64,000 nt of DNA from the NCBI GenBank assembly GCA_036785375.1, contig JAWMAR010000201.1, forward strand, positions 992,001-1,056,000, written 5' to 3'. This document shows, piece by piece, positions 20,018 through 43,795 of this stretch (position 1 is its first letter; the number at the start of each line of letters is the position of its first letter). A model generated the notes under the pieces. It ran no database searches and was not told the DNA's origin. It worked only from the letters and a program-made list of their open reading frames with translations. This stretch comes from Leucoraja ocellata. Lineage: Eukaryota. The position numbers and the translations under genes are program-made.

Positions 20018-20074
20018 TCAGCTCAGATCATGCTCAGAAACACACTGGGAGAGATACATCTCTTGCAGTTGTGC
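20018..20074 (-). CDS. NTPase exon 12 (AQLQEMYLSQCVSEHDLS*)
   Basis: ttctgtAG acceptor, phase 0; TGA at 20020-20018. Confidence 0.78.
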   Translation of the reverse strand, partial: AQLQEMYLSQCVSEHDLS

Positions 20075-23000
20075 CTACAGAAATAAATGAAGGGAATTAT
20101 TTTAACAAAAGTCACTCGAGAAGGAAAGATATTAACAGCATGACATTATTCACACACCATGGAAAATATATATTCAGAGAACGCAAATACATGAAATAAT
20201 GAAGGAAAATAAACTAATATTAGAATGAAGAGAGAATTTTAAAAGCAGACAAAAAGATGTTGCCAGGATAGGGTGTGAAATACCTTTTTCTGAAACAAGG
20301 TGCTCTGAACATAGTCAAGGTTCACCTGGAGTCTCTTTCGCTCCTTCCTGCTTAGTTTAGGTTTGGTGCTGGAGATTAAAAAAGTAAACTTTAGCTAGAA
20401 CCAAAAAACAATTATTAGTTTAAAACTGGTGATCTACACCTGCAGGTTATTTGCAAAGAAAACATCTGAGATGTTATTTAACTCTATGTATTTGACATCT
20501 GTGGAGGCCAAGTTGTTTGGGTATTTTTAAAACAGACTGACAGATATTGATTAGTAAGTGTGTCAAGGGTTATGGGAAAAAGGCAGTAGCATGGCATTGA
20601 GAGGGAAAGATAGATCAGCCATGATTGAATTGCGGAGTAGACTAGATGGGTCGAATGGCTTACTTCTGCACCTATGTCTTATGAATTTATGAATTTTTGA
20701 CTTGCCTAATTCCAACGAGGAAACATGTGTATTTATATCCCACATCCTTTCGTCCATACCACTATCCAGAAACTGCTCAGCTTATGGCCACCTACGTTAT
20801 GTACATGGATTATGGAACATTTCCTGATCGTTCCCATTTATATTCATGCAGCTGATATGTTCAGTCCTTACAGAAATACGCGTCTACTATACCTAAAGTA
20901 GGTAGTCTGTATTCCACTAATTTAATATATTCATTAAACTTTTATCAAGTCTAGGTATGCTGACATAAAAGTAAATTGCTGCATGCCTACTGTCTTAATA
21001 GTTAATTATTTTAAATAGATTATCATATATGGTAAAATTACCAGAATCTGAGCTATCCAAAACGGAATTAAAATAATGGGGCAATGCTAAAAACAAACAG
21101 AAATTGCTAAACATTCTCAGCAGGTCACAACATGACTTAAGAAGGTTCAGTGAAATGTAAAGTTATCTCTGCTTCCTTCTCCTAGCCTACATATTCTTTC
21201 CAGAATTACCTTTCGAATTATTTCAGATTTCCAGCATTTGCATTATTTTGCTTTTCGATGACGTGTGTATATCCATCCATAACTTTCGGATCTTATGTCA
21301 ATATTTGAGTAGATTGTGCGGTCAATGGTGTCGTTTATTTTCTTTTTCAGCGGATATATGGTAATAAAAATGTGTATTTTGAGGCAGCCTGTGGATGGCG
21401 GGAATATAAAACTTATTTGCTTGAAAGATTTCAGGAGCTTTTGAAAATTGCTGAGGATGTTGGGCAGGGCATTGAATTTATATGTGATTGAGTGTAATCA
21501 AGTTACTGATTCAGTTAGACACAAAAAGCTGGAGTAACTCAGCGGGACATGCAGCATCTCTGGAAAAAAGGAATTGGTGACGTTTCCGGTCGAGACCCTT
21601 CTTCAGACTCAGTTTCATCGGGTCGAGACCTTTCTTCAGACTTCAGATTCAGTTAGCTGAACTAATGGAGAGAACATGTTAGCTGAATTTTCCACTCAAT
21701 CCAATTAAAATGGAAAGTATTTCAAGTTCAGTGAATTTAGAGAGAAGGGACAAACACATATAATCAAAGAATGGGAATGTGGGAGGGGATATAAAAAAGC
21801 AAATTCAAAAATTATAATAGTACAATATTCTATGGAAAGACCTGGTTGATAATATAAGAATAACTACGTTAATCTTGGATTATAGTTTGAACCCAGATTT
21901 CAGTGTTTATTTTATTGCAATTGACAACATGGATATTGGAATTAAAAGGCCCCACAAGGTATAGTGTTCAGTGTGTGGGAAGGAACTGCCGCTGTGGGTT
22001 TGCATTAAAGATAGACACAAAATTCTGGAGCAACTCAACAGGTCTGGCAGCATCATTGGTGAAAAATAGTAGGTGACATTTTGGGTCGGAACTCTTCTTC
22101 AGTCTGAATGTTAATTAATATAGGAGTGGAAAAATATTTCTGTACACCTAGCTAATACAAATGCTATGCCATGAATCTTAAGGCCATTCCTTGTGTGATA
22201 ATGTCGCTATTAATTGGGGTTTAATTTACACTCTTCACTCGTTGTGTGCAACACATTATTTCCAGTCATGGCTCTCACTTGCTTGATCCATCCCACCACA
22301 AATTTATGCTACATGACTCTCTGCTTACTCGCTCACTTGTTCCTATGCTTTTGCCTTGCTCCTCCTTGCAACTATTAGTTTTTACACGACGCGTGTAATC
22401 GCCAGTTCAATTAATCATCCTCACCACTTAGTGCCTCTGACAGGTTATATTGTCCATTTCCCTTGTTAACCAAAACTATTTCCCTTCATTACAACATTAC
22501 GACAATCACCTGCAAAAACATTTGGAAAGTAGCTTCGAAACGACCATAAAACCGATCAGAATAATTAGGCCCAGCAAATAACTGCCTCCGGTCAGCCAGT
22601 TCCAGGTTGTACATACTATCCACTAGCAGGAAAAAAGAAAAAAAGAACAATGACGCATTTGGAATGTCAAGGTTAAACGCAGAAAACCCCTCACATTACA
22701 TTCTTTGGTCAAATGCGAAGATTATTTTCACAATTAGATTGGTCTTAGATCCAACAGTTTGGAAATGTGTTTGGTGTCATTGTGGTGTTGGGATTTGGTT
22801 GGGATTATGATTTTAGTCGCTAGTGTCTTATTAAGCAGAGCAAACATAAAAGACACGAAAACTTCAATTCCATTAGTACTAAAATATAATCTGGATCGGT
22901 GCATGGTAAAAAAAAATACATGTACTTTTCACTCAATGACCAGAGAATGATCAGCACCAGGTGGACATACTGTATGGTAGAGACACAGCTATGTTATTAA

Positions 23001-26000
23001 TTCAGTCTGAAGCACTAGAAACAGTATTAAGGAAACACCTATAAGGAGCCTACTCTCAGTGACTACTGACATTGCCTTCTGCAACAAAACTCATAGTCTG
23101 CCAGATAGCATTATATTTAGTCCTCTTATATGCTTCTGAAACATGAACTATCTTCACTGGGCATCTTAAAGTCCTTGCAAGATGCCAACTGTATCCGCAA
23201 AATCTTTTAAATTTACTGAAATTATAAGAGAACCAAGATTCCTATCCTTTCTAGGTCAAGATACACATCAATTAACAGCTATTTATAGTGTCAGGTCTAT
23301 TGCGTTGGCTCGGTACTAATCCAGTCCGAAATCGAAACTCTTGTCCCCTCTTTTGTGGACAGAGGAAAAGATTCCTGATTGTGCTCAAACCTTCCTTGAG
23401 AAAATACAACACCCGTGTTTATCTGGGATGGGACATGGCTTCTGAAAATGGAGAAAGAACAATCAGTAAGATGTTGTAAACCTTTGAGGCCCTGCATTGG
23501 GAGCTCACAGGTCGGAGTAGATGTGGAAGGATGATGCAGCATGATCAATCTCAATTCATACAACTTTAATGCAAACAATTCGTACTTGATCGATTCAAGA
23601 ATAGCGAGAAAGATGAAAACAGTGCTTGATGCAGCAACAAAATTCAGGTGCTTGTGAGGCGTACTGTGTCTGATGAATACCTTGGTGATGTGATGGGTGT
23701 TTTGATAGAATGTTCCCGAGGGAGTGTTGAGCCATACTTACGTGCCTGGTCGAATCAAAAAAAAAAACAACTCGCTTTTTCCCCATGAATGACACACAGT
23801 ATATGAGTTGCACTGATCGCATAAGAAAATATATTGTGAGCAGTAACTGGTACAGATATAGACTCACATTGCTCTATTAAACATTGGTGCAATTTGGTTT
23901 GAACACAGAATAGCTCCAGATGCATTTCCCACAGATACTAATTGAGTCAGAGGAGCGGAAATGGGTGGTAGATAGGATAAGACAAGTTTGATGTACCATA
24001 CTCCTACTCACCCTATGCAATTGATTAACCAGACGCTACCATTCTGGAACACAATTCTATTAATACTATTAATAAGGAATCATACCGCCAAGATCATCAA
24101 AGATTTTGTGACTTCCTCTCCCATAATATCAGAAAGATTTTCTCTTGGTGTATTAGAAATGATGAAACTTGTTAACAGTGTCAGCGGTACCAGGAATGCC
24201 GAAGAACTGAAGAATATACGCTTGATCCAGGCTGCCCTGTTCTTTGAATTCTGTTCGCTGAAATGAAACACAGAATTACTATCCTGAGCAGCCAGCAGAA
24301 CATAGCTTCCAAAAACCCATTCACATCACCATCTATGTCAAAGGTTGGGCACGAATCGAGACCAAATCTAAGTTATTGAGTTGAGAGGTAGCTCGTTTAC
24401 AATAAGATACTTAAGGTTTACCTAAACTCAGAATTCTGGGGAACAATAGTTGACGCAGATTTGACGATCGGCACACAACAAATGTTCCATTTGAGTATGT
24501 TTTTGATTGGCAATTGGGTACCGAATGATTTTCTTTTACACCATCACACCATCGGAAAGATTGCTCAGTTATGGACATTTATGACACTTGAATCTTAAAA
24601 TAGGTTTGCGCACATCTTGGCTGGCTTTACTCCCGGTCGCTTTATTGGATGCAACGATTAATTTGATCATATATTTATATGTGCCATCTTCCCAAGCTCT
24701 GCTCGATTGTTCATTTAAACCATTTAATTCCCCCTTTACATGCCCTTCAACGTTTTGTTTAATATTATAATTCATAATAATATTTAACTCAACTATTTCT
24801 GCCTATTATATACGTCTCGCATTAAAGGCGGATGTTCCTCAGCCGACACTATAAAAAATGTTAAATAACCTAATAGCTATCCATTATGTGCCCTGGATAA
24901 TTAATCTAGTTGTTTTGTGCAATTCTATTCCGAAGTGGCATAACATTAAATGCAATAACGATTTAGCACAGTTTAAGATGACATTTTCTTGTACCACATT
25001 CATTTTCCCGTATAAATTGTGCTCAGGTTTTTCATGCTGCTCTTTAAATTTCAATAAAAATAGAATTACATTGAATTTAGAAAATTTAATCAAATTAAGA
25101 TTTTTTCAGTAAAGTTCAAAACATGTGATCTTTAAAATAGTTTTTAATCTATTATTAAATTTTGTATTTTACTACAAGGAATACTTATTCTGACATAGAA
25201 TGAGGCCACTTGGCTCACTAATTATAAGCCAGCTTCCAATGGAGCAATCCCGGCAGCCTGATTTCCCTTTTACTTATTTCTCCTTACCAAAGCAAAGGAT
25301 AATTTTCAGCAATCAATTCGACATCGAGCATTTTGTATATACCTGTAGGGGACAAACAGAACCTTTGGCGAGTATCGGCGATGTAACGCGAAAGTGTGCA
25401 TCTACGTACACTAGCACTCAGAGCCAAAGTCGAACCTGGATCCCCGAAGCTGCGAGGCAGCAATACACAATGTTTCGACGCTGTCTACCCCAGACTTGAG
25501 GGCAAAATTATCCTAAAATAAACATATGTTGACCGCACTATGTACTTCTGGATTTCGTACAGATTCACCTCTTTCTCAAATTCGTGACATTCTATAAAAG
25601 GCAGCAGTAATTTTACCAAAGGCATTTGCATTTCTTTAAATTTGTCCAACTAAATTCAGTTGAATCGTGGCGTATAACATTAAATTCAACGGCTGCATTG
25701 GAATCACAATATTGCCATCAGAGCTTAAACTTATACCCCTGTCTGCCTGTCTCCCTTCCAGTCTCTGTCTCTCTCTGCGTCTGTCGCTCTCTCTTTGCCA
25801 GTCTGTCTGCCTGTCTCTTTGCCTGCATCTCTTTCTCCCTCCCTCACTGTTTTTCTGTGTTTCCCTGTCTCGCCATCTCTCTCATTTTCTTTGTCTCCTC
25901 TGAATATCAGCAACAAATACATAGGCTAAATGGAGGAAATGTAACATGGCCATCGCTAAAACGGACTCCAGTATGTAGAATAACGGGGCACTGAATTTGT

Positions 26001-29000
26001 TACTTGATAAAGAAATCTTGCTCACGGTATAAAATCGCCTGATATGCAGATAGTTTGGGAAAGAGGCATCAAGATTCAAGGGCAAGGCAAGTTCTGGCTG
26101 GAGAAACGACCGAAGAGCAAGATGTTTTAGAAACTATTGTTGTGAAAACCTGGAGGATGTTTATACATACGAATAAGTCCAGAAGGGAGGATTTTAAAAA
26201 AGAAAAATAATTTGCCATTTTTTTAATGTTGAAAAGTCAGGATATGATTGTGAATATATAGAATTTAGTGTGAATAACCCTATGTAAGATGTTTAAGAAG
26301 GAACTGCAGATGCTGGAAAATCGAGGGTACACAAAAAAGCTGGAGAAACTCAGCGGGTGCAGCAGCAGCATCTATGGAGCAAAGGAAATAGGCAACGTTT
26401 CGGGCCGAAACCCTTCTTCAGACTGATCGGGGGTGGGGGGAGGGGGGGAAGGGGGGGGGGCGGGGACAAGAAAGGAAAAAGGAGGAGGAACCCGAAGGCT
26501 GGGGGATGGGAGGAGACAGCAGACACCTATGTAAGGTGGATGGGAGGCCATCAGAAGTACATTTGAATAATGGAGTCCAATCTGAATATTAGTGTCGTAA
26601 ACCGATGTTGCGAAACAAATGGTTGGTAGTTGAAAAAAAAAGATGTTGGGCCAGTCTGTACTTGAAGTATGTTCCCAATACAGAACACCATTCTGACCAA
26701 TAATCAAATGCGCTGGGTACTTCGATCGGATCCAGTTCCTGCGTAACGTACAAATTCTTTAATTTCAACATTCACTGTTGGATAATATGTTTCTTCCCAC
26801 TCATTTGGCCATTCTATGTTGCGATCTGTGGCATTCGAGTAACTGCTAATGGTCACCATTGCCTGTTCTGTCTAGCTGCTGAACTTCCAATGGATCAAAT
26901 CGAAATGAGATGTTGGCTGAAATAAGGATGTTCAATTTTTGCAGCTAAATATTCATAATATCCAGCTCGGTTGCTTTGTCCATTTCTTCAGATTTATTCC
27001 TTTGCATAATACTGGCAATGTGATTAATTTCCAATGTTATTCATCCGTTTCACTGCACCAGTCCTGCACACCGTGCGCAGTGGCATTTTACCTGCTCTCC
27101 TTGAGCTGCTGCTGTGCTGTGTTGATAATTTGTCCGCAGTCCTTCTCGAGCTGGTCCAACGTGTTCTGAACTGTTCGGTTTATTGTTTTTTCTATGGTTG
27201 CACACACCTCTTGGATCTGATTCACACAACGCGATGGCTGTCATTCCAAAAACATAAAAAGGCATGAGAACTGATGTATTACTGTACAGAAACACAAAAT
27301 GCTGTAAATATATCCGTATACATATGGATGACTCAAGTGAACCTTTCCGATATCTCTCGTCTCTAGCTTATTGAACTGAGAACCCGAGATTGTTTCTTGC
27401 ATTTGGGAGTGCAAAAATAGAATGACAGCACAAGAAGTGGAATTAGAAATACTTGCAAATGATGTACGAACTAATATCTTTATAAATTGCCATAGACATT
27501 TGAAATTGATGTAACGTCAAAGAGCCCTTGAATGAGTTTTGTCTTTCGCCACAGATAGACACAAATTGCTGGAGTAGATTAGCGGTTGCAGCAACGTCGC
27601 TGGAAAAAATGGATAGGTGGTGTTTCTGATCCATCCGTTCTTCAGTCGGATTGCAGTAGCAGGAGCGGAACAAACAAACTCGAAGCAAAAAAAGGCAGGA
27701 CAAAACACAGGCAACAGGTGAGCTCAGCAAGGTAGTTCCCTGTTAAGCAGATTGTTGGACAAAGGTTAGATATAGAAATAGGAGAAATATGAGAGTGCCT
27801 AAAAGGGATATACTGCAGTTGTGAATTGTGAAGCTGGTTAATGGGGTTGTGGTATTTTTTAAATAAACAAGGAGCATGTGGCTAAATTGTAAAATCTCCC
27901 AGTCAATGAGCTTGCTGCCCCCCACTGGTTTCAGTGCATTTTGCTGTCATAAGAGCAACATAAGGCATCCACCCAAACCAATCATAATGTAAGGAAATCA
28001 GTTCAATGTACAAATTCCATAGACTTTTATATGATGAAAAAACGTGCTAACATTCCGCCATTGCATTAAATTAAGAAATTGATTGCAAATCAAACAATAA
28101 AAGCACCATCAGTCTTAAAGCCAATCTAGCCCATTCCTTACTGTTATTTGCCCAGGAGATCGATAGTATTCATTTGTCGTGCTTGCACTTTGGACTATAT
28201 ATGTATACAGCATGGGGATCGTTTCTACTGGATTCATATGTATTGGGTTAACATTAAAAATCCATTACCCTATCTAGGTCTGGGATGTAGATGGTTGGCA
28301 TATCAAAGCCGCATTTGTTCAACCCTGGTCGTTTGCACAGTTCTTGTACTATCTGCATCATTACTCTCTGGAAGAAGCAAAGGAAACACATAATACACCA
28401 TATAATTTGCCAGTTTTCGCAAAGTATAACAACTTATTAGGCAGTAAGTCCCATTGACCCGAGGCTATTGTTAACCTCCACAATCCCTCCTCACACAAAA
28501 TAAAGCACAATGAAACAATTGCATTTGAAATAAAGTCGCCCTTCCTGTTCCGCCAACCATAAGAAACTAACTACATGATCAGGGCTTGCCGTTTAGTTTA
28601 CACAATAACACAAAATTACTTTATAAATTAAGGAATTATTAAAGGAATGAATGTTGTCAACGTTATTGTCTGATTCAAATCATTTTAATTCATCTAATTC
28701 ATTGAATGGGCAGAATTGTCTTTATTTCAACTTGGGATCCAACATCAACATGTTCAAATAATGTTTCCGTATTAAATGGTACAGGATTGTCGCAAATCTA
28801 ATGGCTAGATTAAAGGCTAGAAATCTATTTTTATTTATATTACCCATATGCGATTTTCCTGAAGAAATACATCCAGGAGGTCGTATCTGGATCCTGTTCA
28901 TAAGTTCATAGTGTCATGTTATAGGGTTGGAATTAGATAATTCGACCCATTAAGCTTAGTCCATCATTTAATCATGGTTGATCTATCTTTTCTTCTCAAC

Positions 29001-32000
29001 CCAATTCACCTGGCCCGACACATGTAAAAATCAAGAATCTATCAATCTCCGCCTTTAAAATATCCATTGACCTGGCCTCCACAAACTTCTGTGGCAGTGA
29101 ATTCTACTTGATTCACCTTCCGCTGTCAAATGGAAATTATCTTTATCTCCTTTCCAAAGGTATGTCCTTTTATTCTGAGGCTATGGCCTCTGGTCCAGGA
29201 CTTTTCCATTAGTGGAAACATCCTCCCCACATCCACTCAATACACAACTTTCACTTTTCGATAAGTTTCAATGAGGACCCTTCACCCTGCCAAATAGCAG
29301 GCACAGGCTCAAATCCGTCAAATGCTCGTCATATGTTAACCCACTCATTCCTGGAATCATTCCCTACTCTGGACTCCCTACAAGGCCAGCAAATCCTTCC
29401 TCAGATATATGTTCAAAAACTGCTCAAAATACTAATGCGGTTTGACCATTGTTTTATAAAGTCTCAGTATTACATCCATGGTTTTATATTCTCATCCTCT
29501 CAAAATAAATGCTAGCATTGCATTTGGCTTCCTTAATACTACTTACAAATTAAGTTTTTTTGGGAATCCTGCAACAGCTCTCCTTTGCACCTCTAATTGC
29601 TGAATTCCTCCCCCATTTAGAAAAGAGTGCATGCCTTTATTACTACTACCAAAATGCATGACTCCACACTTTGCTATACTATACTCCATCTGCCACGAAA
29701 TTACGGAATTTCGCAGAGCGTGTTGTAAGATTTCCGACAGTACCTGTCTGTCAGTCTCAGGGCCTGCTTCATCAGCTTTGCTGAGGTAGAACTTTAGTTT
29801 ATCGCCCTGGTTCTCATTTAGCTTTTCCACAACGTTCAGGGTCCGTTTGCAGAGGGCCTGGCCCATTGGATCAAAGAAGACAAAGATTAAATCGACCTGT
29901 TCACCTGTGGGTCGAAAGCGAGACAACAGTCCGGTAATGCACCAGTTGCTGACTTGCACGCATTATTTAAGCATCCCCCTTCCTTAATCCCATTAATATT
30001 TCCCCTCCTCCAAGTACCTACAAAAATCACTCACCTGGTTTTGGTACTGTAAAACAACGTAGGGTTTGATTAAACCCAATGTTAGAGTCACAGAGTTGTA
30101 CATCATTCAAGCAACTCTGGCCCACCTCATCCAGTTGACCATCATGCGTATCTACACTACTCCCACTTAACTGCATTAGTTCGCTACCCTTCTATACGCA
30201 GTTCATTCCAGTACCTGGCCTGATGTTTCTTTAATTCAGTTCCTGTGCCGGACACACCACCATTTCATTTGATAGCTCATTTCATACACCAAGTAAATTT
30301 TGTGCAATGTATGCCTCAAACCCCTTTAGTATACTTCCACTTGCTTTAGTAATTTTTATATATAAGTAACTTTCTTACTTGAAAATAAATTTCTGGGCTC
30401 ACATCGGATGACAGGATTGCAACACATCTCCAGATCAATTATCCAAGACTCAGGATGTTAGACCAGTAAGTAAGCAACATAGTGTGATATCGTCTTTGCA
30501 ATATCAACATCCACCTCATTGAAAGATTTACTCTCTTACCCAGTTGGATAAGTGCTTTGTCAACATCGAACTCGTAAGTCATGTCACCATCCACGAGTCC
30601 TGGGGTATCGATAAAGATCACTAAGTTAAACATCTTCTGCTTGGAAACACTGATCTCAGTGGACAGGTAAACTTCCAACCCTGGAGAATAGATAGCGAAC
30701 AATGAACCGAATAAACAGGATATGTTATTCCATTGTTTTATGTAGTGTCAGGGAGGGGTGCTGTACATTTCATAAACGGATATAAAGTATTCTTTATATA
30801 ACAATATCCCTTCATGCCAATTATTTTCAGCAGTAAACATATTAATTGCATTGTCACGTAGAAGATACAAAAAAACAATGGCATTTCGAAAACACATATT
30901 GATCTGCGGAATGCCCATTTGCAACTTTTTTGTGATAGACCCTTTTCAGGTGTAAATTTTAAATTTAAATCATACTTATTGATCCCATATTGATATGTTT
31001 CCCTTGCAAAATTCCTGAGCCTTCTGTTATGAAAGGATATCCCTACGCACATCACAAAAAACAACTGACCCTCTGGAAGAAGTAAGCGTGCCAAGCACCA
31101 CCTGTGGACATAAATAGGGAGTCGACATTTCAAATTAAGATATTTCGTTCAGATGAAATCTCGACTGAAACGTCGATTACTGATCTCTCACCACAACTGA
31201 AGTCTGATCTGGTGAGATCCTCCAGCAATTAATTTTCCTTTGGTTCAGACACTAGCATATGAATTCTCATGCTTTCAGGTGCACAACATGTGGTACTTCC
31301 AACTTCCAGGCAATAATGCCGCTGTTACTTAAATTATTATCGACATGCTAATGAACTTAATTCTCAAGTGCTCCCATTACACAGACGGGTGTCCTACCCA
31401 GAAACAAAAATTGTTTTATGAAGGCCTCATTGTTCCTTTATGCAAATGTGCCCTTAGATATGTTATGTATGCATGAGCATACAGAGGAGGCAAAAATAGC
31501 AGAATAGAAGATGGTGGGAGAATTGTGTGCATGCCGGCATGTTGGTCTGCTATTGAAAGAAAGGGTGGCGGGGGTGGGGGGGGAGTGTGCCCTAGACCAA
31601 TTAAGCAGAATACCACATGCTGATTTTCTAGTTTGCAAGTGGCCTCACTCTGGCACTAGAGGAGACCTAGACAGAAATGACCATATGGGAATTGGGTGGA
31701 AAATGAAGTGGATAACAATTCTGCACCTGTTCCCATATCGGTACGCGCATCTCAAATCCCTCATTCCCTTATTATTACATAGAACATTACAACACAGGAA
31801 CAGGCTTTTCGGCCTACAATGTCTGTGCCGAAAATGATGCCAAGGTAAACTAATTTAATCTGCCTACATGATCCATATCCCTCCAATCCCGACACATCTA
31901 TATGTTCATCTAACACCTATCTGACTCCACCAGCACCCCCCAGCAGCATTCTCTATTTTTCTTGATATTGCACAGTCAATGCCTCTTAGCCATTTTTGCC

Positions 32001-35000
32001 TTGTTCCATGAAGTACTAATGTCACATCATTCTCCTTAAGGAGAATTGTAAGGATCGTTGCAGTAATTCCATGCAATGATTTTGTCCCTCAATCAGTTTA
32101 TCTTTTGCAACTTGTCCAATTTGAGTTTGCTTTCTTTTAACAATTGTTACCTAATGTGGGCCCACAATGGCTGTAATTTGATTAGAATGATGTGATGCAA
32201 GTGGAGAGATCTCCTCCACTGATATCTGCAATACAAAGATGGTGTGGATGTACCTCTAATCTGTTCCAGTGCTTGGAAATGCGGGTAGAGGTGTAGTGTA
32301 GCCTTGCCCTGTGAATGAATTAAACAAATTGATTAGAACCGTTTAAATTAACTGCCTCCCCGAGCCATGAATTAATTAAATCTTCGCATTGGACCAATAT
32401 TCCAATATTCATTAAAGCACCAATGTGCAATGATAAAATGCAAATGTAAATCACTGTTCGATGTAGTATTTACTCAACCGAATCAGTGATTTTTGGAGTA
32501 ACACTGCACAACATCACATGCTTTGCCCCCCCTTTACTCCTGCCAATTTTGTGCCCACCACTCGCAGTCCACTGTACTCCAAATTCCTGTCAACTCTCTC
32601 CAGCTCCTATCATTACACAAAGAACAATTTCATCCTGGCCAATTAACCAAAACACCGCGCAAACCACGTCAACGTGCAAGCCCCACACAGACCGCTTCGT
32701 AAGTAGTTGTGAGGAAATAGATCTATTGGTGGCGCCTCTGTGCTTCCCTCAGAGGATATTGTGAAGAAGGAAATATATCTGCAATAAATTAATCTGCGCC
32801 TAGTTTCAATCCATTGATCATCGATACTTACCGAATGATTACCGAATAGTGAAAGGCTTGGAATGAGTGAATGTGAAGAGGATGTTTCCACTAATTGGAG
32901 TCTATCACTGGAGGATACAGCATAAGAATTAAATTTCTTTAGTTAGAGGGTGGTGAATCTGTGTAATTAATTGTCACAGAAAGCAGTGGAGGCCAAATCA
33001 ATGGATATTTTTAAAGCAAAAATAGATAAATTCTTGATTATTTCGAGTGTCAACAGTTATGGGGAGAAGTAAGGAGAATAGGGTTAGGAGGGAGAGATAG
33101 ATCAGCCATGATTGAATGGCAAAGTAGACTTGATGGCCCAAATGGCCTAATTCTGTTCCTATCACATAACCTTATGACCTATGATGTTATGACGTACTGC
33201 CAAATCCACGAGTGTCAATGGCGGGCGAAAAACTTCCATAGTTTGGGTCACCATTCTCAGAATTAACCTTTGCTCATATCTTAGACTTTACGGTTTCAAC
33301 AGGATGCGAGTGGAATTTGCAGTTCTTCATCAATTTAGATGTAGTGCAAGATAGAACCTCGAATGCAGTCCGTGGAATTATTTACCGTGAGTGATTCCCT
33401 TTTCTTGCCGCTGGTGATAAAAGTGAACCCTTGTGTTTCTGTGGCAACACCTGTTTTCTGTATGTGTTCTTCAATGTACCTGCAAAATGATGAGAAGAGT
33501 TTTGTGAAACTCATGGAGTCATAGAGCTATATAGCATTGAAACAGTCACCATAGGCAGAACTTGGCCATGCCGATCATTTGCCTGCAATTGGCCATATCT
33601 CGGGACATTTCCTATCCATGTACCTGTACAAATAACATTAGTAAAGTTCAATATTAATCCCTACTCTTTTTTTCCTGTCTGGCAACCAATTTTCTATCCA
33701 TGTCAGCAATCTACCCCCAATACCATGTGCCCTAATTTTGCCAGCTTCTGTCGCTCCCCAGAATGAACTGCCACTTCCTGTGCCATCGCATCTTTATTGG
33801 AGCTGAGGATGGCCGGCGGAGATCTCCAACCGGACACAATTTCCGGAGAGACCGGAAGTGGAGATATCGGGGATGTCGGAGAAGTCGCCGGTCGCCAAAC
33901 GGAGACTTTGATCCCGGTGGAGGAGAATGACCAGTGACCAGTGCCCGTTGTGAGTCCCCATCGCACCGCCAGCTCCAGGCCCTTCCCCTCTGGTCCCCCT
34001 CACTGGCTCCTACCCCCCTTCCCATGACACCCCCCTCTCCCCCATGGCTCTTCCCCCATCTTTTCTCCGAGCTCTCTCTCCCCTCCCCCTCCTGCCCACT
34101 TACCCCTCTCCCCCCACAACCCCCCCGCCCACACACACCCCACAATCCCGCCACCATGCCCCCACACTCCTCCCCCCAACAACCCCCCATGCACCCACAC
34201 CCTTACCCTCCCACCCCACACTCACCCCCACAACCCACCCCGTGCCCACACACACCCCTCTCCTCCCACAACTGCCCCCGCCCCCACAAGCCCCCCCCCG
34301 CTCCCACAACCCCCCCATCCACACACAAAAATCCTAGAGGAGCAAGGTAGACCACTCCTTCGAAATCCAATGGACTGGCGTGTAGTACGTGACGGAACGT
34401 CACGGCCGCCATTTTTCAATGCGACATGCGACTTCCGGTATGCCACCCGCTGTGATCCAAAGCAAAGATTATAGAGCTCCGCTATAATCTTTGATCCAAA
34501 GCAAAGATCCTCGAGTATCTTGTAGCGGGAACAGCCCCCTCCTTTGCGTAGTTTCCCTTGCATTGTATTGCTTTAACACACACTGCACAAAATTAAATTT
34601 AACGTATACATATTTTATATATTTATATGAATGTGTGTCTGTGTGTGAGAGGCAAGTTAGAGATAATTAAGTTTATTCTCATGGATCTGAAGCAACTTTG
34701 ATTTAAATAATCACTATTAATTTATTTGTCTTGTAAGATGATATACATAAACCATAAAGGCAATTATATATATAATTATATAGTAATAATATATATATAT
34801 GCATATATACACATACATACATACATACATATACACATACATATGCACACATACAATTACACGCATACATATGGATACNNNNNNNNNNNNNNNNNNNNNN
34901 NNNNNNNNNNNNNNNNNNNNNNNNNNNNNNNNNNNNNNNNNNNNNNNNNNNNNNNNNNNNNNNNNNNNNNNNNNNNNNNNNNNNNNNNNNNNNNNNNNNN

Positions 35001-38000
35001 NNNNNNNNNNNNNNNNNNNNNNNNNGTAGAGGAACTCAGCTATTTACAATATATATTAATGATCTGGATGAGGGAATTGAAGGCAATATCTCCAAGTTTG
35101 CGGATGACACTAAGCTGGGGGGCAGTGTTAGCTGTGAGGAGGATGCTAGGAGACTGCAAGGTGACTTGGATAGGCTGGGTGAGTGGGCAAATGTTTGGCA
35201 GATGCAGTATAATGTGGATAAATGTGAGGTTATCCATTTTGGTGGCAAAAACAGGAAAGCAGACTATTATCTAAATGGTGGCCGACTAGGAAAAGGGGAG
35301 ATGCTGCGAGACCTGGGTGTCATGGTGCACCAGTCATTGAAAGTAGGCATGCAGGTGCAGCAGGCAGTGAAGAAAGCGAACGGTATGTTAGCTTTCATAG
35401 CAAAAGGATTTGAGTATAGGAGCAGGGAGGTTCTACTGCAGTTGTACAGGGTCTTGGTGAGACCACACCTGGAGTATTGCGTACAGTTTTGGTCTCCAAA
35501 TCTGAGGAAGGACATTATTGCCATAGAGGGAGTGCAGAGAAGGTTCACCAGACTGATTCCTGGGATGTCAGGACTGTCTTATGAAGAAAGAGTGGATAGA
35601 CTTGGTTTATACTCTCTAGAATTTAGGAGATTGAGAGGGGATCTTATAGAAACTTACAAAATTCTTAAGGGGTTGGACAGGCTAGATGCAGGAAGATTGC
35701 TCCCGATGTTGGGGAAGTCCAGGACAAGGGGGTCACAGCTTAAGGATAAGGGGGAAATCCTTTAAAACCGAGATGAGAAGAACCTTTTTCACACAGAGAG
35801 TGGTGAATCTCTGGAACTCTCTGCCGCAGAGGGTAGTCGAGGCCAGTTCATTGGCTATATTTAAGAGGGAGTTAGATGTGGCCCTTGTGGCTAAGAGGAT
35901 CAGAGGGTATGGAGAGAAGGCAGGTACGGGATACTGAGTTGGATGATCAGCCATGATCATATTGAATGGCGGTGCAGGTTCGAAGGGCCGAATGGCCTAC
36001 TCCTGCACCTAATTTCTATGTTTCTATGTTTCTATTACTTTCCAACGATCAATAGATTTACGATCAATACCTGTGGATTGGAGGAAAGCTAATGCTATCC
36101 CACTTTTCAAGAAAGGAGCGAGAGAGAAAACGGGGAATTACAGACCAGTTAGCCTGACTTTGGTGGTGTAAAAGATGCTGGAGTCAATTATTAAAGATGT
36201 AATAATGGGGCATTTGGATAGCAGTAAAAGGATTAGTCCAAGTCAACATGGATTTATGATTTTACAATGCATTTAAGCCTCTCCCATTTTTATGAGATGC
36301 ATTCCTGGAATATGTAGGAAGTTTATTGTAACCTAGTGCTACTTGCCTGAACAATGGATGATATATCACTTAAATGCAATTGTTTTCAGTTGTGTGGAGA
36401 GACCTGTATATTGAAAATGCGTTTTGCCTCTAATATGTCAATTTACCTTAAATGTAGAAGAGCTTATTAAAATCTTCTTACAAAGACCATTAAGTTTTTT
36501 CTTTCTATCCTCTTTTGGACCCAAGGCATAGCAGAGCTGCCAACTCTCACGAATAGGTAAGGGAGGGAGAGATGGAAGGGAGGGAGAGAGGGAAGGGAGG
36601 GAGATCGCGAAGAGAGGGGGAGAGAGAGAGAGAGATCGAGAGAAGAGAGGGGAGCGAGAGATCGAGAGGAGGGGAGAGAGAGATCGAGAGAAGAGAGGGA
36701 GAAGGGGGGAGAGGGAGAAGGGGGCGAGGGAGAAGGGGAAGGGGGGGACAGGGGGAAGGGGGGAGGGAGAAGGGGGACAGGGAGAAGGGGGAGAGGGAGA
36801 GGGAGAAGGGGGAGAGGGAGAAGGGGGACAGGGAGAAGGGGGACAGGGAGAAGGGGGACAGGGAGAGTAGAACGATAGCACATTATAACGCGCAGCCGTC
36901 CCATTCCGACCAAAGATTATAGAGCAGAGCTCCACTAGTATCTTGGATTGCGGCCGCCGCCACCGAACCCCCCGGCCACCATTGCACCCAAAGATGATAG
37001 AGCAGAGTTATATAATATTTGATTGCACCCTTCTTCACGGCGGGCTTGTGATCTTTGCTTGTGATGTCTTGACAATTCGAGGAATATAATGGGTAACAGC
37101 CGCCCATTCTCGGACTTGAATCTGAGCTCGAAAAATCTCCTGGTCACTGGACCTGATGTGTCCACGGGCCATATTGTGGAGACCAATCCCTTACAAGATC
37201 AAAACCCAAAACGTACAGAAGTGTTAAAATTGTCTTTATTATTGTGGTAAGTAAAGATCTATTAAAAATAAGTCTAATAACTTTCTAATGTACCGACAAA
37301 CCCAGTTTCCTAATGGCCGTTGATGGGAGAACAGAAAATAACATTTTCACGACAGAATATCGACTGAAAATAATAAATATATTTTCTCACCTTTCTTTTT
37401 TATTGGGGAACCTAAAGAATGACAGGTCGGGTCGTTTAGATTTACGATTAGAATAATTGATAGCAGAGCAGTAAGATGAAATTTAGATAAGGACGCCATG
37501 ACACTGTGGGGGAAGCCCAATAAATGCCTCGAAAAATGGCGTCGACGATCACACACGTCATACTACGCGTTTTTCGAGGAGTGGTCTATCTTGCTCCTCT
37601 AGGATCTTTGCTCCCCTCCCCCCACAAACTACCCACCAACCACCAAACCTCTCCCCTCCCACAACCCCCCTTCCCCCCCCACAACCTCCCACCCCACAAC
37701 CCCCCTTCCTTCCCACACCACCAAAACCCCCCAACCCACAACCCCTCCCCCCCCCCACCGCCCAAACACCCTGCAGTAATTTTCCAGCGAAGATTTACGA
37801 GGATGTTGCAAGGATTAGATGGTCTGAGCTATAGGCAGAGGTTGAGTAGGCTGGGACTATTCCTTGGTGCGCAGGAGGACGAGGGGTGATCTTCAGTAGT
37901 TCAATAGTCCTTTATTGTCATGTGTTTCTTGAGGTACAGTTAAATTTGAGTCATACAAAAAAGAATCAACAAAATACAAAATTACATAAAGATTAAACAT

Positions 38001-41000
38001 GAACAGCCACCACAGCGGAATGTGAGAATCCCCTGGGCGGCACAGTATAAGTCGAGACCCACAGCCATCAGTTCAATGTCCGGGCCACACACACACGCTC
38101 CTTCAGCGTGATGTGACTAGAGTTGTACCGACCGATGTCACTCTCTCTGCAGTCCCTGTCTGCCCGAACAGTGAGAAAGCCGTCTGCACTCGCACCAGAC
38201 TCTAGGATCCAGGGGCGCGACATCCCTGCAAACATTGAGACCACCGCACTCACGGCAATCCCCACCAGTGCAGGCAGCATCAATCTTGTTTTCGGTGACC
38301 TGGCACTCCTCACTGTGATGGAAGGCGAGTAACTTTTTCCTTCTTCCTCCTTTTCTCCAGGAGGAAACATCCGCAGTCGGGGTGATCGAAGCTCCCGGAG
38401 TCGGCGATTGAAGCCCCCGCAACGGGGCAATCGAGGCTCTCGCGATCGGGGCGGCCAAAGCTCCTGCAGCTGGACTCCCCGAAGTCGGTCCCTAACAAAG
38501 GGACCGCCAGCTCCACAATGTTCGACCGCAGAGATACGATTCGGAAAAAGTTGCATCTCCGTCGGGAGAAGAGATTAAAAATGTTTCCCCCATCATCCCA
38601 CATAATACAAAAATTTAAGATTAACTAAAACATACAAATAAAACTGACTAAAAACCAAAGATAAAAACAACAAAGAAGAAAGGGACAAGACTGGCTGTTG
38701 GCGAGGTTGCCTCTCACAGCGCCACCCGGTGATCTTATAGAGGTGTATAAGACCATGAGAGGAATAGATCATGTAAATGCACAGAGTTTCTAGCTCAGAG
38801 TAGGTGAATCGAGGACCAGAGGACATAGGTTTAAGGTGTAGAGGAAAAGATTTAATAGGAATCTGAGGGGCAACTTTTTCACAGGTGGTTGTTTGGAATA
38901 AGCTGCCAGAGGAGGTAGTTGAGGCAGTGACTATCCCAAATCATTTAAGAAGCAATTAGACAGGCACATGGATAGGACAGGTTTGGAGGGATATGGACCA
39001 AATTCTGGCAGGTGGGACTCGTGTAGCTGGGACCTGTTTGGGCAAGATGGGCAGAAGGGCCTGTTTCCACACTCAATTACTCTATGACATGTGACAATAA
39101 TAAATGAAACTAAACTTATTTAGACATAACTTTTGTAAACGTCACATTATTTGCTCGAGAGATTTCGGCCTATCAAGAAAGGAAATAGACGTTTACACAA
39201 AAAAGCTGGAGAAACTCAGCGGGTGCAGCAGCATCTATGGAGCGAAGGAAATAGGCAACGTTTCGGGCCGAAACCCTTCTTCAGACGGAAATAGACGTGT
39301 CCTTTTCTAAATGAAAGAGTCTTACCAGTTGATGAAGGAACTCTTGCCAGCCGAATGATTTCCCATCAGCATAATGGTGATCTTCTTCCTTGGAGCCAGG
39401 AGACTGAGTCCCAACTGGCTGGCGATGTGCACAAGTCCTGTCAATAGCAGAATGATGTGATCATTTCATTTAATATCATCTTTAACAAGAGTTGATTGGC
39501 TGATTAGTGCACTTATATTGTTAATTCCTCCACCTGTATCACCATCAATATCTGTATCTTTTTGAAGAAAAGAAACCAATATACATATACTTGAAATGCG
39601 ATATATTAACAAAATGCTGACACCACTGGACAGTTCCACTACTGGCAACTGTGGGGGGAAGAAGTGAAAATGTCAATAATACTCTCATTGATTAGAACGT
39701 TAACTTTATTTCTCTCTCCACAGATGCCACCTGACCTGCTCGACATTTGTCAATATTTTCTGATCTACTTCACACTTGTGAATCCATGACATTCATCACA
39801 TGTCAATACCCAATTTTCTGTCTCACTTCCATGTTACCGGTTCCATTTACATTCTCCAACTCTAAGTATCATTTTTTTTAAAAGCTGCCTTCCTCACGCT
39901 GTAAGGTTCATTCATACTGACTCGGTCGGAGAATTCACTTGTAACTCCGATAAAGGGACATAATGTGCTGGAGTACCTCAGCATGTCAAGCAGCATCTCT
40001 GGAGAACATGGACATGTGATGTTTACGGCCCAGACCCTTCTTTAGTTTAGTTTAGTTTATTATTGTGATATGTTCTGAGGTACAGTGAAAAGCTTTTGTA
40101 TGTGTGTTATGCAGTCAAAGAAAATACTAAACGTGAATACAATCAAACCGTACAGTGCACAGATAAAGATAAAGTGCAAAGACTGATGCGCTGTCATCTA
40201 ACTCTCACTTCCTCATGTTTCAAATCGCATCCCACACTTTGCTCCTTGAATAGCTATCCTATTTATTCTGAGTATATCGTTATTTACTCATTTAATTTGC
40301 GAAGGTCTTCCGCCTATCACTCAGTTCAGAAATCAAACGTTAATACCTTCCTTCACTCCAATTCCTTAGGGTAATCCATTCAATTGTTCCAAGAATGAAA
40401 CTCCCTTTTCTTCACATCTTGACACCACTTCTATGACCTTACTCTGTAAATTTTGTGAATCCACGCTGAATATCTTATTCTCACTTTTTGCTCTGGGAAT
40501 ATCACTTCCATTTTCTTACTCAGAGTGCTGCATGGATTCAGTCTGAGAATGTCACTCAAATTCATTGCTGAGAATCTCATTCCCATCATCCACATTCTCT
40601 ATTCTATGAACCTTGCTTCCAACTGCTCTGTGAGCATATAAATTCCTTTTGTTGATTTCCTATGAGTTGATCACTCTATATATTGTTGTATTTGTCTAAA
40701 AAGATAAATTTTAATCCCTCACTTAAATCGTTCTCTGACGGAAAAAGCATCACTCCCATTTCCTCGCCCTTGAACTTTATTACCTTGCATCACAGTGAGG
40801 AATGTGGATTCCGCTGTGGTGGATGTTTATGTTAAATTTTATTTTATGTGGCTGCGTGTATTGTTGCTTTTTAATTTGTATGGCTGTAAAGTAACTCAAA
40901 TATCACTATGCCATTATTGGTACATGTGACAATAAATTCGAACTCGAACTTGAACTTGAATCATGCTCCCCTTATTCCTTCTGAGGGCAAGAGAGCTTTC

Positions 41001-43795
41001 CTGTTATCATTATTTCATGCAGAGAATGACATTCGTATCTCCTTAGTCTTCAGCGTTAAAAAGTTCACTCCCATTTTTTCACGCTGTGAATCTCATTCGC
41101 ATCACAAAACTCTGTAAACTTCACTTTTTCTGATAGAGAATATCAATATCATACTGCATTCCCACTCGCTTCCTCGGATAGTCTTGCGTCCACTCCATTA
41201 AATTGAGTGCCCCACATTTATTTTCCCTTACTGAGCAATTTCCTAATTTTGTTATTTCCACTTACCTTCCTGCACTGAGAATATCACTCCTAATTCATTA
41301 CTTAGAGAACCTATTCTATTCTATTCTATCTATTAGAAACATAGAAACATAGAAAATATGTGCAGTAGTAGGCCATTCGGCCCTTCGAGCCTGCACCGCC
41401 ATTCAAAATAATCATGGCTGATCATCCAACTCAGTATCCTGTACCAGCCTTCTCTCCATACCCCATGATCCCTTTAGCCACAAGGGCCACATCTAACTCC
41501 CTCTTAAATATAGCCAATGAACTCGCCTCAACTACCTTCTGTGGCAAGGAGTTCCCGAGATTCACGACTCTCTGTGTGAAAAATGTTTTTCATATCTCGG
41601 TCCTAAAGGATTTCCCCTTTTTCCTTAAACTGTGACTCCTTGTCCTGGACTTCCCCAACATCGGGAACAATCTTCCTGCATCTATCCTGTCCAACCCCTT
41701 AAGAATTTTGTAAGTTTCTATGAGATCCCCCCTCAATCTTCTAAATTCTAGCGAGTACAGCCAAGTCTATCCAGTCTTTCTTCATATGAAAGTCCTGACA
41801 TCCCAGAAATGCAGGCAGGTGAGATTAGTGTAGATGGTGCACCTTGGCCGGCCTGGACAAAGTGGGCCGAAGGCACTGTTTCTGTGCTGTGTGACTCCAT
41901 CCTGTACTCCTTCTCGTCCTCGTTTGTGATTCAGCCCATCACAATGGTGTCATCTGCAAACGTAGAAGGGGGTAGAGACGATTTTGGCTGGACAGTCATG
42001 AGTATATAGGGAGTAGAGTTATGCATTGAAAATACATCCTTGCCGGGCACCAGTGTTCACTCTTCTAAAATGTGGACCAACAACTAAATTGCACGCTCAG
42101 TCCACCATCCTGTGAATTGAGAACATAGAACAGTACAGCGCAAGAACAGGCCCTTAGGCCCACAATGTCTGTGTCGAACATGGTGCCAAGGCCATCAATT
42201 ATCTACCTGCACATAACCCATATTGATCCATGCCCTGCATATCCATATGCCTATCGAAATGTATTTTACATGTCACTAAGTTAGGTGCTTCAAACACTTT
42301 TCCCGGCAGCACGTTCCAGACATTCAGCACTCTGTTTAAACACCTTGCCCCGCACATCTCTTTTAAACTATGTCCCTCTCACCTTAAATCTAGCATTTGC
42401 TTTCCTCATTCTGTAAATATTATTCCGAGTCCGCCCATGTGACCCCATGGATTTTCTCCGGGTGCTCCGGTTTCCTGCCACATTCCAAAGATGTACAGCT
42501 TTGTTGGCTTCTAAAAATTGTAAATTGTCCCTATTGTGTACAAAGTGATTGCTGGTAGGTTTGGACTCGGTGGGCTGAAGGGTCTGTTTCCATGCTGTGC
42601 AGGATCTCTAAAGGAAAATAAAGCTAAAGATACAACAAGAATTTCACCACTATTCCCTCTCAATTAGAATGTGATTTTCACGATTCAACCATGACACTAA
42701 TTCCCATTTGCTCTTTCTGATGAGCTTGTGCTCATTCTGAAATTATGAGCTGTGCTTCCATTCCCTGCATCAAAGCTTGTTGCCATTACCCCTCAATATT
42801 TTGCATTACTTCGCCTAAATTGTAAATATCTCACTGTTCCCTAACTGTGATAATTATATTCCATAATTTGCCTAAAGTAATTCGCATTGCCCGATTTAGA
42901 GAATCTCCAGCATTCCCAGTCATTAAAGCTCACTCGTATTAATTTGCTCTAGCGCAACTCGATCCCCCAAATTTGACCATCTCATCCCCGTTCTCTCTTT
43001 CTCCGGAAATCTCCCCATCATTACTGCACTTTGAAGCATTGAGATCCAAATGTGAACAGAGATTCATTCCTAGATCTGCAGTCTGAGAATCTCAGAATTC
43101 CTGTCTCAGATATTCGCTCATATTTCCTCAATTAGAAACATAATGCAAATCTTATTCTTATCCCATCTGATTGGAAAATACTGTCCAATTTCCTCATTGA
43201 GAATCTTCCTCCAATTTCCTCTATTGTGTAAACAATAACACTGTTCTCTGTAAATATTATTCCCAACGCCCTTCTTTGTTGTCTAGCTGTGCCTAGATCA
43301 CAGGACGTGAGTGAGATATAGTGGTGGGAGAGGGGTAGGTGGCCACTTGTATATCTAAGAGAACAAAACAAAATAATTGAATGTTCCATAAGGATCAACT
43401 TAACATTGGTATATGCATGATAAGTGATTTTGTTCATAGGAGAGGGAGGAAAAGAGAGAGAGAGATAGAGATGAAGGGAGCACACGGCAGACAGTTCAAC
43501 AAAATGGAAATGTACAAAATGAAATTGGTGCCAAATCTAACATGTTGAAACCCGAGAGCAACGTGACAGATAATGCAAAAATAGAGCTGTTGATTACTGA
43601 TGTTCACACAGGCGCACTGTGGAAGGACTGCACTACGGGCTATAAATATACTTATTTTATTATGTTGCCAACGTACATACCGCACTCAGAGTCCATATAC
43701 AGCAAGTGACATTGCCTCAGGATCTTCTCATTAATGGAGAGACACATATTTTCCAAAGTGTTTGAACACATTCGCAGGTTCAAACTTCCTGACAT
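20018..43795 (-). CDS. EHD/sarcalumenin-related dynamin-superfamily P-loop NTPase with two C-terminal TM segments (12 exons, 449 aa)
   Basis: Exons 43681-43795, 39326-39437, 33386-33479, 32254-32308, 30540-30680, 29744-29904, 28269-28367, 27092-27237, 24086-24257, 22510-22622, 20284-20368, 20018-20074. All introns GT-AG with matching phases; sum 1350 nt, no internal stop. G1 GNHSAGKS, G3 DTPG, G4 SKAD. Confidence 0.9.
20284..20368 (-). CDS. NTPase exon 11 (TKPKLSRKERKRLQVNLDYVQSTLFQKK)
   Basis: AG/GT flanks, phase 2 to 0. Confidence 0.8.
22510..22622 (-). CDS. NTPase exon 10 (second TM, GGSYLLGLIILIGFMVVS)
   Basis: Long polypyrimidine tract plus AG; phase 0 to 2. Confidence 0.8.
24086..24257 (-). 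CDS. NTPase exon 9 (first hydrophobic segment)
   Basis: Phase 2 to 0; IFFSSSAFLVPLTLLTSFII. Confidence 0.8.
27092..27237 (-). CDS. NTPase exon 8 (helical stalk, PSRCVNQIQEVC...QQQLKES)
   Basis: AG/GT flanks, phase 0 to 2. Confidence 0.88.
28269..28367 (-). CDS. NTPase exon 7 (RVMMQIVQELCKRPGLNKCGFDMPTIYIP)
   Basis: AG/GT flanks, phase 0 to 0. Confidence 0.9.
28895..29695 (-). mobile_element. Degraded CR1 LINE fragment in NTPase intron 6
   Basis: WQMEYSIAKCGVMHFGSSNK motif and CR1 3' UTR. Confidence 0.7.
29744..29904 (-). CDS. NTPase exon 6 (FFDPMGQALCKRTL...SKADEAG)
   Basis: AG/GT flanks, phase 1 to 0. Confidence 0.9.
30540..30680 (-). CDS. NTPase exon 5 (FIDTPGLVDGDM)
   Basis: AG/GT flanks, phase 1 to 1. 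Confidence 0.9.
32254..32308 (-). CDS. NTPase exon 4 (GKATLHLYPHFQALEQIR)
   Basis: AG/GT flanks, phase 0 to 1. Confidence 0.85.
32840..33185 (+). mobile_element. Degraded CR1 3' end
   Basis: GTGGTGAATCTGTG...GATCAGCCATGATTGAATGGC...GGCCTAATTCTG. Confidence 0.7.
33386..33479 (-). CDS. NTPase exon 3 (YIEEHIQKTGVATETQGFTFITSGKKRESLT)
   Basis: AG/GT flanks, phase 2 to 0. Confidence 0.9.
33960..34325. repeat. C-rich low-complexity tract (resumes at 37611-37770)
   Basis: CCCACAACCCCCC-type motifs on both sides of 34326-37610. Confidence 0.8.
34463..34493. mobile_element. 31-bp palindromic hAT-like mini-element with 8-bp TSD
   Basis: ATCCAAAG|CAAAGATTATAGAGCTCCGCTATAATCTTTG|ATCCAAAG. Confidence 0.7.
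34879..35025. other. Assembly gap (preceded by a TA/CATA microsatellite)
   Basis: Run of N. Confidence 1.
35040..36034 (+). mobile_element. Young CR1 LINE 3' part (RT C-terminus, 3' UTR, TTTCTATG tail)
   Basis: ISKFADDTKLGG, WQMQYNVDKCEVIHFG, LVRPHLEYCVQFWSP, VQRRFTRLIPG; single frameshift near 35730. Confidence 0.95.
36560..36866. repeat. GA-rich low-complexity / GGGAGAAGGGGGACA minisatellite
   Basis: Direct inspection. Confidence 0.9.
37894..38727 (-). mobile_element. Non-autonomous retroelement inserted in a CR1 (TSD GGTGATCTT), carrying a Rex1/Babar endonuclease fragment
   Basis: Homologous to 44709-45370; duplication at 37885-37893 and 38728-38736; 38030-38305 encodes a DGFLTVRADRDCRES...HITLKERVC-like APE sequence. 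Confidence 0.65.
39326..39437 (-). CDS. NTPase exon 2 (P-loop GNHSAGKSSFINW)
   Basis: AG/GT flanks, phase 1 to 2. Confidence 0.9.
40190..43270. repeat. Highly diverged ~30-bp tandem repeat (core CTGAGAATMTCACTCCCAT), interrupted by CR1/SINE
   Basis: Variants at 40491, 40541, 40567, 41083, 41274, 43081, 43197 and others. Confidence 0.5.
41335..41807 (-). mobile_element. CR1 LINE 3' end
   Basis: Close reverse-complement match to 35560-36034. Confidence 0.9.
43681..43795 (-). CDS. NTPase exon 1 (MSGSLNL...INEKILRQCHLLYMDSEC)
   Basis: ATG at 43795; phase-1 donor G|GTATGT. Confidence 0.75.

Follow-up and report, generated by a model that had tools for sequence, protein, structure and literature searches.

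A twelve-exon skate gene encodes a predicted membrane-anchored, EHD-like protein of the dynamin superfamily

A gene of twelve exons was identified on the minus strand of a 64,000-nucleotide stretch of DNA from the skate Leucoraja ocellata (assembly GCA_036785375.1, contig JAWMAR010000201.1, positions 992,001 to 1,056,000; hereafter the window, with positions counted from its first letter), where it extends from 20018 to 43795. Its 449-residue product is best explained, with a probability of about 0.55, as a nucleoside triphosphatase (NTPase) of the dynamin superfamily, belonging to the EHD/MfnL branch, which is anchored by a membrane hairpin and tethers or bends an internal membrane through nucleotide-driven pairing of its G domains. 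Catalysis, pairing of G domains and membrane remodelling are activities that we infer for it. The family to which it belongs falls outside EHD, sarcalumenin, atlastin and mitofusin.

The coding sequence runs from an ATG at 43795 to a stop at 20018–20020; as had been predicted, the twelve exons join into 1350 nucleotides and 449 residues without an internal stop, with GT-AG borders in 11 of 11 introns. The product is identical at 445 of 449 positions (4 residues differ) to the 449-residue RefSeq protein of Amblyraja radiata LOC116986884, and because of this near-identity the join of the exons is not due to chance. RefSeq already annotates the gene, as ‘uncharacterized’, so the gene is not hidden as the original prediction had it. 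Splicing was followed in assembled contigs of two sets (X1 and X4), which are presumed to be RNA and whose species may differ from that of the window. Exons 7-8-9-10-11-12 are joined in one X4 contig and exons 5-6 in another, and an X1 contig holds exons 5, 6, 7, 8, 9, 10 and 12 in order with an unlisted 86-nucleotide stretch at the place of the 85-nucleotide exon 11; the contigs run past exon 12 into the 3′ untranslated region to ~19917. Exons 5–12 are joined in order, and the G-domain exons are spliced to exons 9–12, the link on which the original prediction had been staked beforehand. For the junctions of exons 1–5, the basis is the RefSeq match together with 423 nucleotides that lie ahead of exon 5 in an X4 contig (exons 1–4 sum to 376 nucleotides). 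Two observations count against the gene model, namely a 1-nucleotide insertion in the T run of exon 8 (27185) in the X1 contig, not present in X4, and a depth below 1 on exon-only bins in two raw-read runs (5–6% of each). The twelve-exon gene is confirmed as real and spliced.

Along the protein, exon 1 (43681..43795, residues 1–38) carries the ATG, a short leader and the first helix of the helical domain (model helix 21–34), and is followed by exon 2 (39326..39437, residues 39–75) with the G1 motif or P-loop GNHSAGKS at 39340–39363, exon 3 (33386..33479, residues 76–107) with switch I and the G2 residue Thr91 in ATETQGF, exon 4 (32254..32308, residues 108–125) with a loop LYPHF at the position of EHD's KPF loop, exon 5 (30540..30680, residues 126–172) with the G3 motif DTPG and Glu162, and exon 6 (29744..29904, residues 173–226) with FFDPMGQALC and the G4 motif SKAD. 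The helix RVMMQIVQEL, at the position of EHD's dimer helix and without its Trp, is encoded by exon 7 (28269..28367, residues 227–259), and a long amphipathic stalk helix by exon 8 (27092..27237, residues 260–307). Exon 9 (24086..24257, residues 308–365) contains the end of the stalk, the predicted first transmembrane (TM) segment, TM1 (residues 322–343, ~24152–24217), and the start of an acidic loop; exon 10 (22510..22622, residues 366–402) adds a Trp-rich amphipathic helix and the predicted TM2 (residues 380–400, ~22518–22580), exon 11 (20284..20368, residues 403–431) the basic stretch KPKLSRKERKR and the start of a returning helix, and exon 12 (20018..20074, residues 432–449 and stop) the end of this C-terminal helix. 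All six motifs named in the original prediction were found on the minus strand.

Pfam matches to Dynamin_N (27.9 bits, cut-off 27) and MMR_HSR1, together with motifs G1–G4, make up a large-GTPase domain of the dynamin superfamily, and sequence and fold matches identify an EHD-type G domain with helical domain. In a set of 68 non-redundant homologues (below 80% identity, drawn from 311), G1 GNHSAGKS, G2 T91, G3 D150-x-P-G and G4 K215-A-D217 are 97–100% conserved; the P-loop G64–S71 is invariant in 68/68, as is T91, and conservation values are 0.81 for the G domain and 0.36 for the membrane part. T91 aligns with the second Thr of EHD GPEPTTD, and LYPHF (72–87% conserved) aligns at the EHD KPF loop. 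When PDB was searched by sequence, 6/6 matches were EHD2 or EHD4 only, and 6/7 in a second search. No EH or EF-hand Pfam match was obtained in 7/7 members scanned, the skate protein ending at residue 449, which agrees with the predicted absence of an EH domain. A motif R-x-x-A-N before the first helix (window 43750–43795) occurs from ctenophores to vertebrates and in some protist-like members and is degenerate in the skate; by analogy with EHD's N-terminus it might fold into the pocket of the G domain. The C-terminal xHDL was considered as an endoplasmic reticulum (ER) retrieval signal and set aside, since it varies across homologues and would be cytosolic.

An AlphaFold model of the skate protein (predicted local distance difference test, pLDDT, 76.5; predicted template modelling score, pTM, 0.68) shows, in order, an N-terminal helix, the G domain, a long helix at 267–343 leading into TM1, two short helices, TM2 at 380–400 and a helix at 410–448. 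The top Foldseek matches were all EHD proteins. VIA-align superposed 320 residues on EHD4 (model 20–442 on chain 19–403; Z 25.9, root mean square deviation (rmsd) 3.6), so that a helical stalk or bundle with contributions from either side of the G domain is present in the model, and mitofusin-2, Fzo1, IniA, SynDLP and BDLP came after EHD4 at Z 14–18. The EHD-like G domain and stalk of the original prediction are borne out by these matches. The predicted fold is EHD-like, and its C-terminal helix is predicted to return to the stalk: the alignment matched helix 410–448 to the helical domains of both EHD4 and mitofusin-2, and the free, atlastin-like cytosolic tail that had been proposed was not recovered.

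Hydropathy places hydrophobic segments at residues ~322–343 and 380–400. At a 19-residue Kyte–Doolittle value (KD19) of at least 1.6, TM1 was detected in 65/66 homologues, TM2 in 61/67 and the loop in 1/67, which upholds the two membrane segments proposed before; two C-terminal segments, non-adjacent and with a median spacing of 57, are present in 60/68 members. Basic residues flank both segments (mean K+R 3.6 and 6.3), the loop between them is acidic and amphipathic, and no signal peptide was recognized (top 10-residue hydropathy near the N-terminus 0.93). Because of the two conserved segments, the basic flanks, the acidic loop and the lack of a signal peptide, a hairpin with both protein ends in the cytosol is predicted.

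EHD1–4 and RME-1 (EHD2, 2qpt/4cid; EHD4, 5mtv) are the best match of the skate protein in sequence and fold. Common to both are a composite helical domain built from N- and C-terminal helices, the G2 Thr, the G3 DTPG, an xKAD motif and a loop at the KPF position; the skate protein differs in lacking the EH domain and the dimer Trp (W238) and in a G4 that begins with Ser, and EHD's lipid-inserting tip is replaced in the skate family by the predicted hairpin. In EHD4, the long helix ends with residues N323–F325, which insert into the outer leaflet (PMC9741607). Counted from the P-loop Gly, the lipid-inserting Phe of a skate EHD is 257 residues downstream; an equal distance in the window protein leads to residue 321, the start of TM1. 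The dimer helix of EHD carries the conserved W238 (PMC9741607); this column is Gln in the skate protein, within an otherwise invariant helix, and in the absence of this Trp the assembly mode of EHD is therefore not transferable to the family. The available passages of a 2026 EHD review (PMC13282721) mention no such membrane-anchored relative. Sarcalumenin has a related G domain, and automatic pipelines label some family members ‘sarcalumenin-like’. It carries a signal peptide and is luminal, whereas the skate protein has no signal peptide and two TM segments, and in the skate genome sarcalumenin has a locus of its own, which groups with EHD.

The original prediction supposed a layout without precedent near EHD, but the closest bacterial homologues of EHD and sarcalumenin possess paired TM helices (Schaffer et al. 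2020, PMC7016017), and TbMfnL of trypanosomes (Tb927.7.2410), a G domain with two TM segments, is integral to the mitochondrial inner membrane (Morel et al., bioRxiv 10.1101/2023.06.28.546890). Overexpression of TbMfnL raises branching and needs the TM segments and the G1 lysine, and its bacterial homologues occur in the same taxa as the bacterial relatives found here (10.1101/2023.06.28.546890); our comparison was made via bacterial proteins of the taxa named there, not via TbMfnL's own sequence. Searching GTDB genomes with the P-loop pattern gave at least 120 stretches, 80 with flanks, and 63 proteins of 400–545 residues, a sample biased towards the animal family by the P-loop from which the pattern was built. 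Two or more hydrophobic segments are present in 50 of these 63 (Desulfobacterota, PVC, Gammaproteobacteria and Oligoflexia). The family profile scored GNHS-type bacterial proteins at 61–75 bits and EHD2 at 36.5, and a profile–profile alignment with the bacterial relatives covered residues 37–327 (prob 99.9, 21% identity). A bacterial model, whose best match is also EHD, has a long helix running into TM1 as in the skate model; these bacteria are matched more closely by EHD, at 208 bits, than by the skate protein, which reaches 103.5 bits with a similar profile.

MfnL and the bacterial two-TM relatives thus have G1–G4, a stalk helix leading into a TM pair and a returning C-terminal helix in common with the skate protein, and the bacterial proteins also the P-loop GNHS[AS]GKS[ST]F[IV]N and similar models. 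In the skate family RVMMQIVQEL stands in place of the bacterial YGxLxW motif and, unlike TbMfnL, it has no clear mitochondrial presequence and occurs in animals and green algae. This group is the better analogue of the skate protein, not atlastin; membership of the family in MfnL is uncertain. Morel et al. describe an ‘ancient paralog’ group, small and deep, with sequences from stramenopiles, alveolates and haptophytes, which might be the present animal and algal family, and the passages available do not mention EHD (10.1101/2023.06.28.546890). A 2024 review calls MfnL elusive (PMC11885689), and the passages available of the MidX paper (PMC10280142) do not mention EHD. Ten further proteins from Bacillota and Actinomycetota (L014, L018, L020, L021, L044, L054, L070, L076, L087 and L088), soluble-looking dynamin-like proteins of 770–860 residues, have only the P-loop GNYS[SA]GKS in common with the family.

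Mitofusin/Fzo1, BDLP and IniA likewise combine a G domain with a helical bundle to which a C-terminal helix beyond the membrane part contributes the last element (MFN2 Z 18.1, IniA Z 16.7, BDLP Z 14.6), and differ from the skate protein, which has a single, much shorter stalk and 11–16% identity to them, so that the layout is analogous. Membership in mitofusin/Fzo was rejected on the length of 449 residues, the single stalk, a fold match to mitofusin-2 with an rmsd of 10.9 (338 aligned) at 11% identity, and the lack of any mitofusin/Fzo sequence match to the family profile at E up to 1. Atlastin also has a cytosolic G domain, a stalk and paired membrane segments. Its G domain is of the GBP type with an RD motif at G4; G4 is SKAD, not RD, in 97–100% of homologues, by which membership in atlastin was rejected, and the skate C-terminal helix is modelled in the stalk whereas the atlastin tail is free. 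Atlastin was absent from the top rows shown of both fold searches, by which likeness is not excluded.

Full-length homologues of ~448 residues with 53–61% identity were found in lamprey, hagfish, sharks, bony fish, lungfish, amphibians, molluscs and shrimp (best 120 of 1181 matches), as was expected for fish and invertebrates, and homologues are present in Xenopus. With a salamander query, the best 120 of 1207 matches reach down to 69–70% identity; seven of their rows are named squamates, and mammals, birds, turtles and crocodilians are absent among the named ones, in keeping with the predicted absence from mammals, and the family was probably lost in mammals. A metagenome scan gave 395 relatives, of which 80 were kept; among look-ups of 22 of its proteins, some were tied to Bathycoccus, Ostreococcus, Pyramimonas, Mnemiopsis/Bolinopsis, Clytia and Oikopleura. 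An Atlas search had a mainly chlorophyte top cluster and, without the family's Pfam sets, scores below 0.85 only. Family-specific patterns revealed no close prokaryotic or viral member in GTDB genomes (45 candidates), viral contigs (40 candidates) or plasmids. Judged by sequence, the family spans ctenophores, cnidarians, molluscs, shrimp, vertebrates up to lizards, and prasinophyte algae, and is much older than the original prediction had it.

The best G-domain tree places EHD and sarcalumenin with deltaproteobacterial proteins (ultrafast bootstrap, UFBoot, 100) and the skate family elsewhere on a long stem. Forcing all eukaryotic sequences together cost a log-likelihood difference of 0.25 (approximately unbiased (AU) test, p 0.48; run with 5000 replicates, below the number recommended by the program, on 38 sequences and 225 columns), so that a separate bacterial origin, suggested by the best tree, found no support in the AU test. 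The tree holds four EHD/sarcalumenin rows, all from this skate genome, with 16 ingroup and 6 outgroup alignment rows left out. On these trees the family may be sister to EHD or a separate acquisition; under either origin it kept the TM pair of its bacterial relatives.

Trees of the vertebrate sequences unite the window protein with a copy from bichir, sturgeon and lungfish (UFBoot 100), and this group is sister to that of zebrafish si:dkey-98f17.5 (82); the coelacanth has all three paralogues, including a copy that groups with the window gene. The zebrafish proteins si:dkey-98f17.5 and si:ch211-11k18.4 resemble the skate protein in length and layout at 56–58% identity, and are two zebrafish copies paralogous to it. 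The former, which had been named as an uncharacterized homologue, is of the same family and uncharacterized, but it is a paralogue and not the orthologue: by its tree position the window gene is the third gnathostome paralogue, whose marker is E162 in place of Pro. The three paralogues were lost in different lineages and their retention is patchy. Residue 435 (exon 12, ~20063–20065) is Gln in skate, stingray and electric ray and Tyr in all 67 other non-redundant homologues, and elasmobranchs have T89 in place of Ile; the sequences indicate that the window gene's paralogue is diverging at sites otherwise fixed.

No functional study of any family member was found in the literature searched, outside which most subscription papers lie, in agreement with the view that the family is functionally undescribed. 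For the two zebrafish genes no functional paper was found; their names gave one table row and their accessions none, the row, in a 2012 table, listing sarcalumenin as the best human match of si:ch211-11k18.4 (E 2e-5; PMC3530609). Within exon 7 (28344–28362), three synonymous differences occur in 14 raw reads of organism A, which are probably from a paralogue expressed where the window gene is not; a second paralogue was not found in this skate assembly, and these reads hint at one in organism A. A second copy of the gene, at G000:C2204:~28500-49000, has exons 3–12 intact (98.5–100%) with flanks 96–98% alike. The match stops near the window's N run at 34879, exons 1–2 were not found up to 58000, and the copy is likely an alternate haplotype or a partial duplication.

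In the favoured explanation the two-helix hairpin would anchor the protein with both ends in the cytosol, nucleotide binding would pair the G domains, the stalk would swing about a hinge as between the open and closed forms of EHD, and the force would pass through the hairpin so that the membrane is tethered or bent, with junctions or branches in an internal membrane as the outcome. Joining or branching is somewhat favoured over fission, because the protein cannot leave the membrane, lacks the dimer Trp and the EH domain of EHD, and has as its nearest characterized look-alike a protein that promotes branching. As the site of action, the ER or another endomembrane is fairly clearly preferred over mitochondria, and there is a slight leaning towards GTP over ATP. 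EHDs carry NKAD yet use ATP, and SKAD therefore does not decide the nucleotide.

Several points weigh against this explanation. The dimer Trp motif of EHD is found in 0/68 family members versus 56/63 bacterial relatives, and the TM segments are spaced at a median of 57 residues versus 25–35 in these relatives. In the model, stretch 80–89 (P-loop to switch I) and the N-terminus have pLDDT below 50, and the five models range from 63 to 76.5. Weak hydrophobic windows also occur in the G domain (14/68 reach 1.6), which makes hydropathy imperfect as sole guide, and at 2.2 substitutions per site the stem of the family is so long that function may have shifted. Morel et al. did not demonstrate membrane fusion by TbMfnL and observed no phenotype when it was lost (10.1101/2023.06.28.546890).

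Three other explanations were weighed. The protein could be a permanently anchored EHD-type ATPase scaffold that tubulates, constricts or stabilizes necks on endosomes or the plasma membrane, on the side of fission, and the proximity of the fold to EHD4, the KPF-like LYPHF loop and a clade with EHD/sarcalumenin that was not rejected all speak for it. The known TM-anchored dynamin relatives are, however, mostly fusion proteins, and neither EH domain nor dimer Trp is present. Moreover, the EHD cycle needs release from the membrane after hydrolysis (PMC9741607), which is impossible for an integral protein, and we regard such a scaffold as unlikely. It is rather improbable that the protein is a membrane-anchored NTPase switch, a receptor or a defence or repair factor that does not itself reshape membranes: patchy retention (three gnathostome paralogues lost variously, none seen in mammals or birds among the matches listed), low expression in the two raw-read samples and a weak match of Toc34 to the family profile (E 0.012) are compatible with this, but the complete composite stalk of dynamin type is retained, the family is single-copy-like without expansion, and identity from ctenophore to skate is 48–60%, unlike that of immune GTPases, which evolve fast. 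Import of a diverged MfnL orthologue into mitochondria, where it would shape the inner membrane from the matrix, is very unlikely: the layout of TbMfnL, the deep paralogue group mentioned by Morel et al. (10.1101/2023.06.28.546890) and the basic N-termini of animal members (acid-free for ~14 residues, mean K+R 3.1 in the first 20) are offset by a leader of ~20 residues (41 in TbMfnL) that has few hydrophobic residues, is short and basic in animals, weak in the skate (one basic residue) and absent in algae, whose members have acids at positions 3–5, and by the absence of the bacterial MfnL-type YGxLxW motif.

Elsewhere in the window, two related, intronless-looking open reading frames (ORFs) of class A G-protein-coupled receptors lie at 480–1535 (−) and 10681–11583 (−) (7tm_1, E 5e-19 and 2e-18), which presumably resemble the expanded GPR139-like receptors of cartilaginous fish. 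Intron 2 contains, directly after an N run, a remnant of a long interspersed nuclear element reverse transcriptase (35028–36000, +; RVT_1, E 8e-5). Interrupted frames at 17685–19680 (+) resemble a decayed DNA transposase, with no Pfam match for three pieces, and long low-complexity purine/pyrimidine repeats at 61290–62970 and 7500–8480 give rise to spurious long ORFs. Outside the window, at G000:C116:1085000-1539000, a Dynamin_N-positive, multi-exon gene is repeated in tandem about seven times, forming an expanded large-GTPase cluster.

The surprise of the hairpin-anchored NTPase is limited, in that the gene was already in databases as uncharacterized and the layout was known from bacteria and trypanosomes. 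Proteins of the MfnL architecture were reported not to be found in Opisthokonta or plants (10.1101/2023.06.28.546890), and at the level of architecture the present family conflicts with this reported absence of proteins with a G domain and two TM segments from animals and plants. Tentatively, the family may represent a distinct class of fusogen of animals and green algae, at least as old as their common ancestor, that joins internal membranes in fish, amphibians, lizards and invertebrates and has disappeared from mammals; the anchored form would then be ancestral, and EHD would have arisen when a lipid tip and an EH domain took the place of the TM hairpin. Dynamin-type remodellers of animals are treated as known from mammals and yeast, and an integral member seemingly lost in mammals would have been missed. 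Through the family, a connection of bacterial MfnL-type proteins with EHDs becomes testable.

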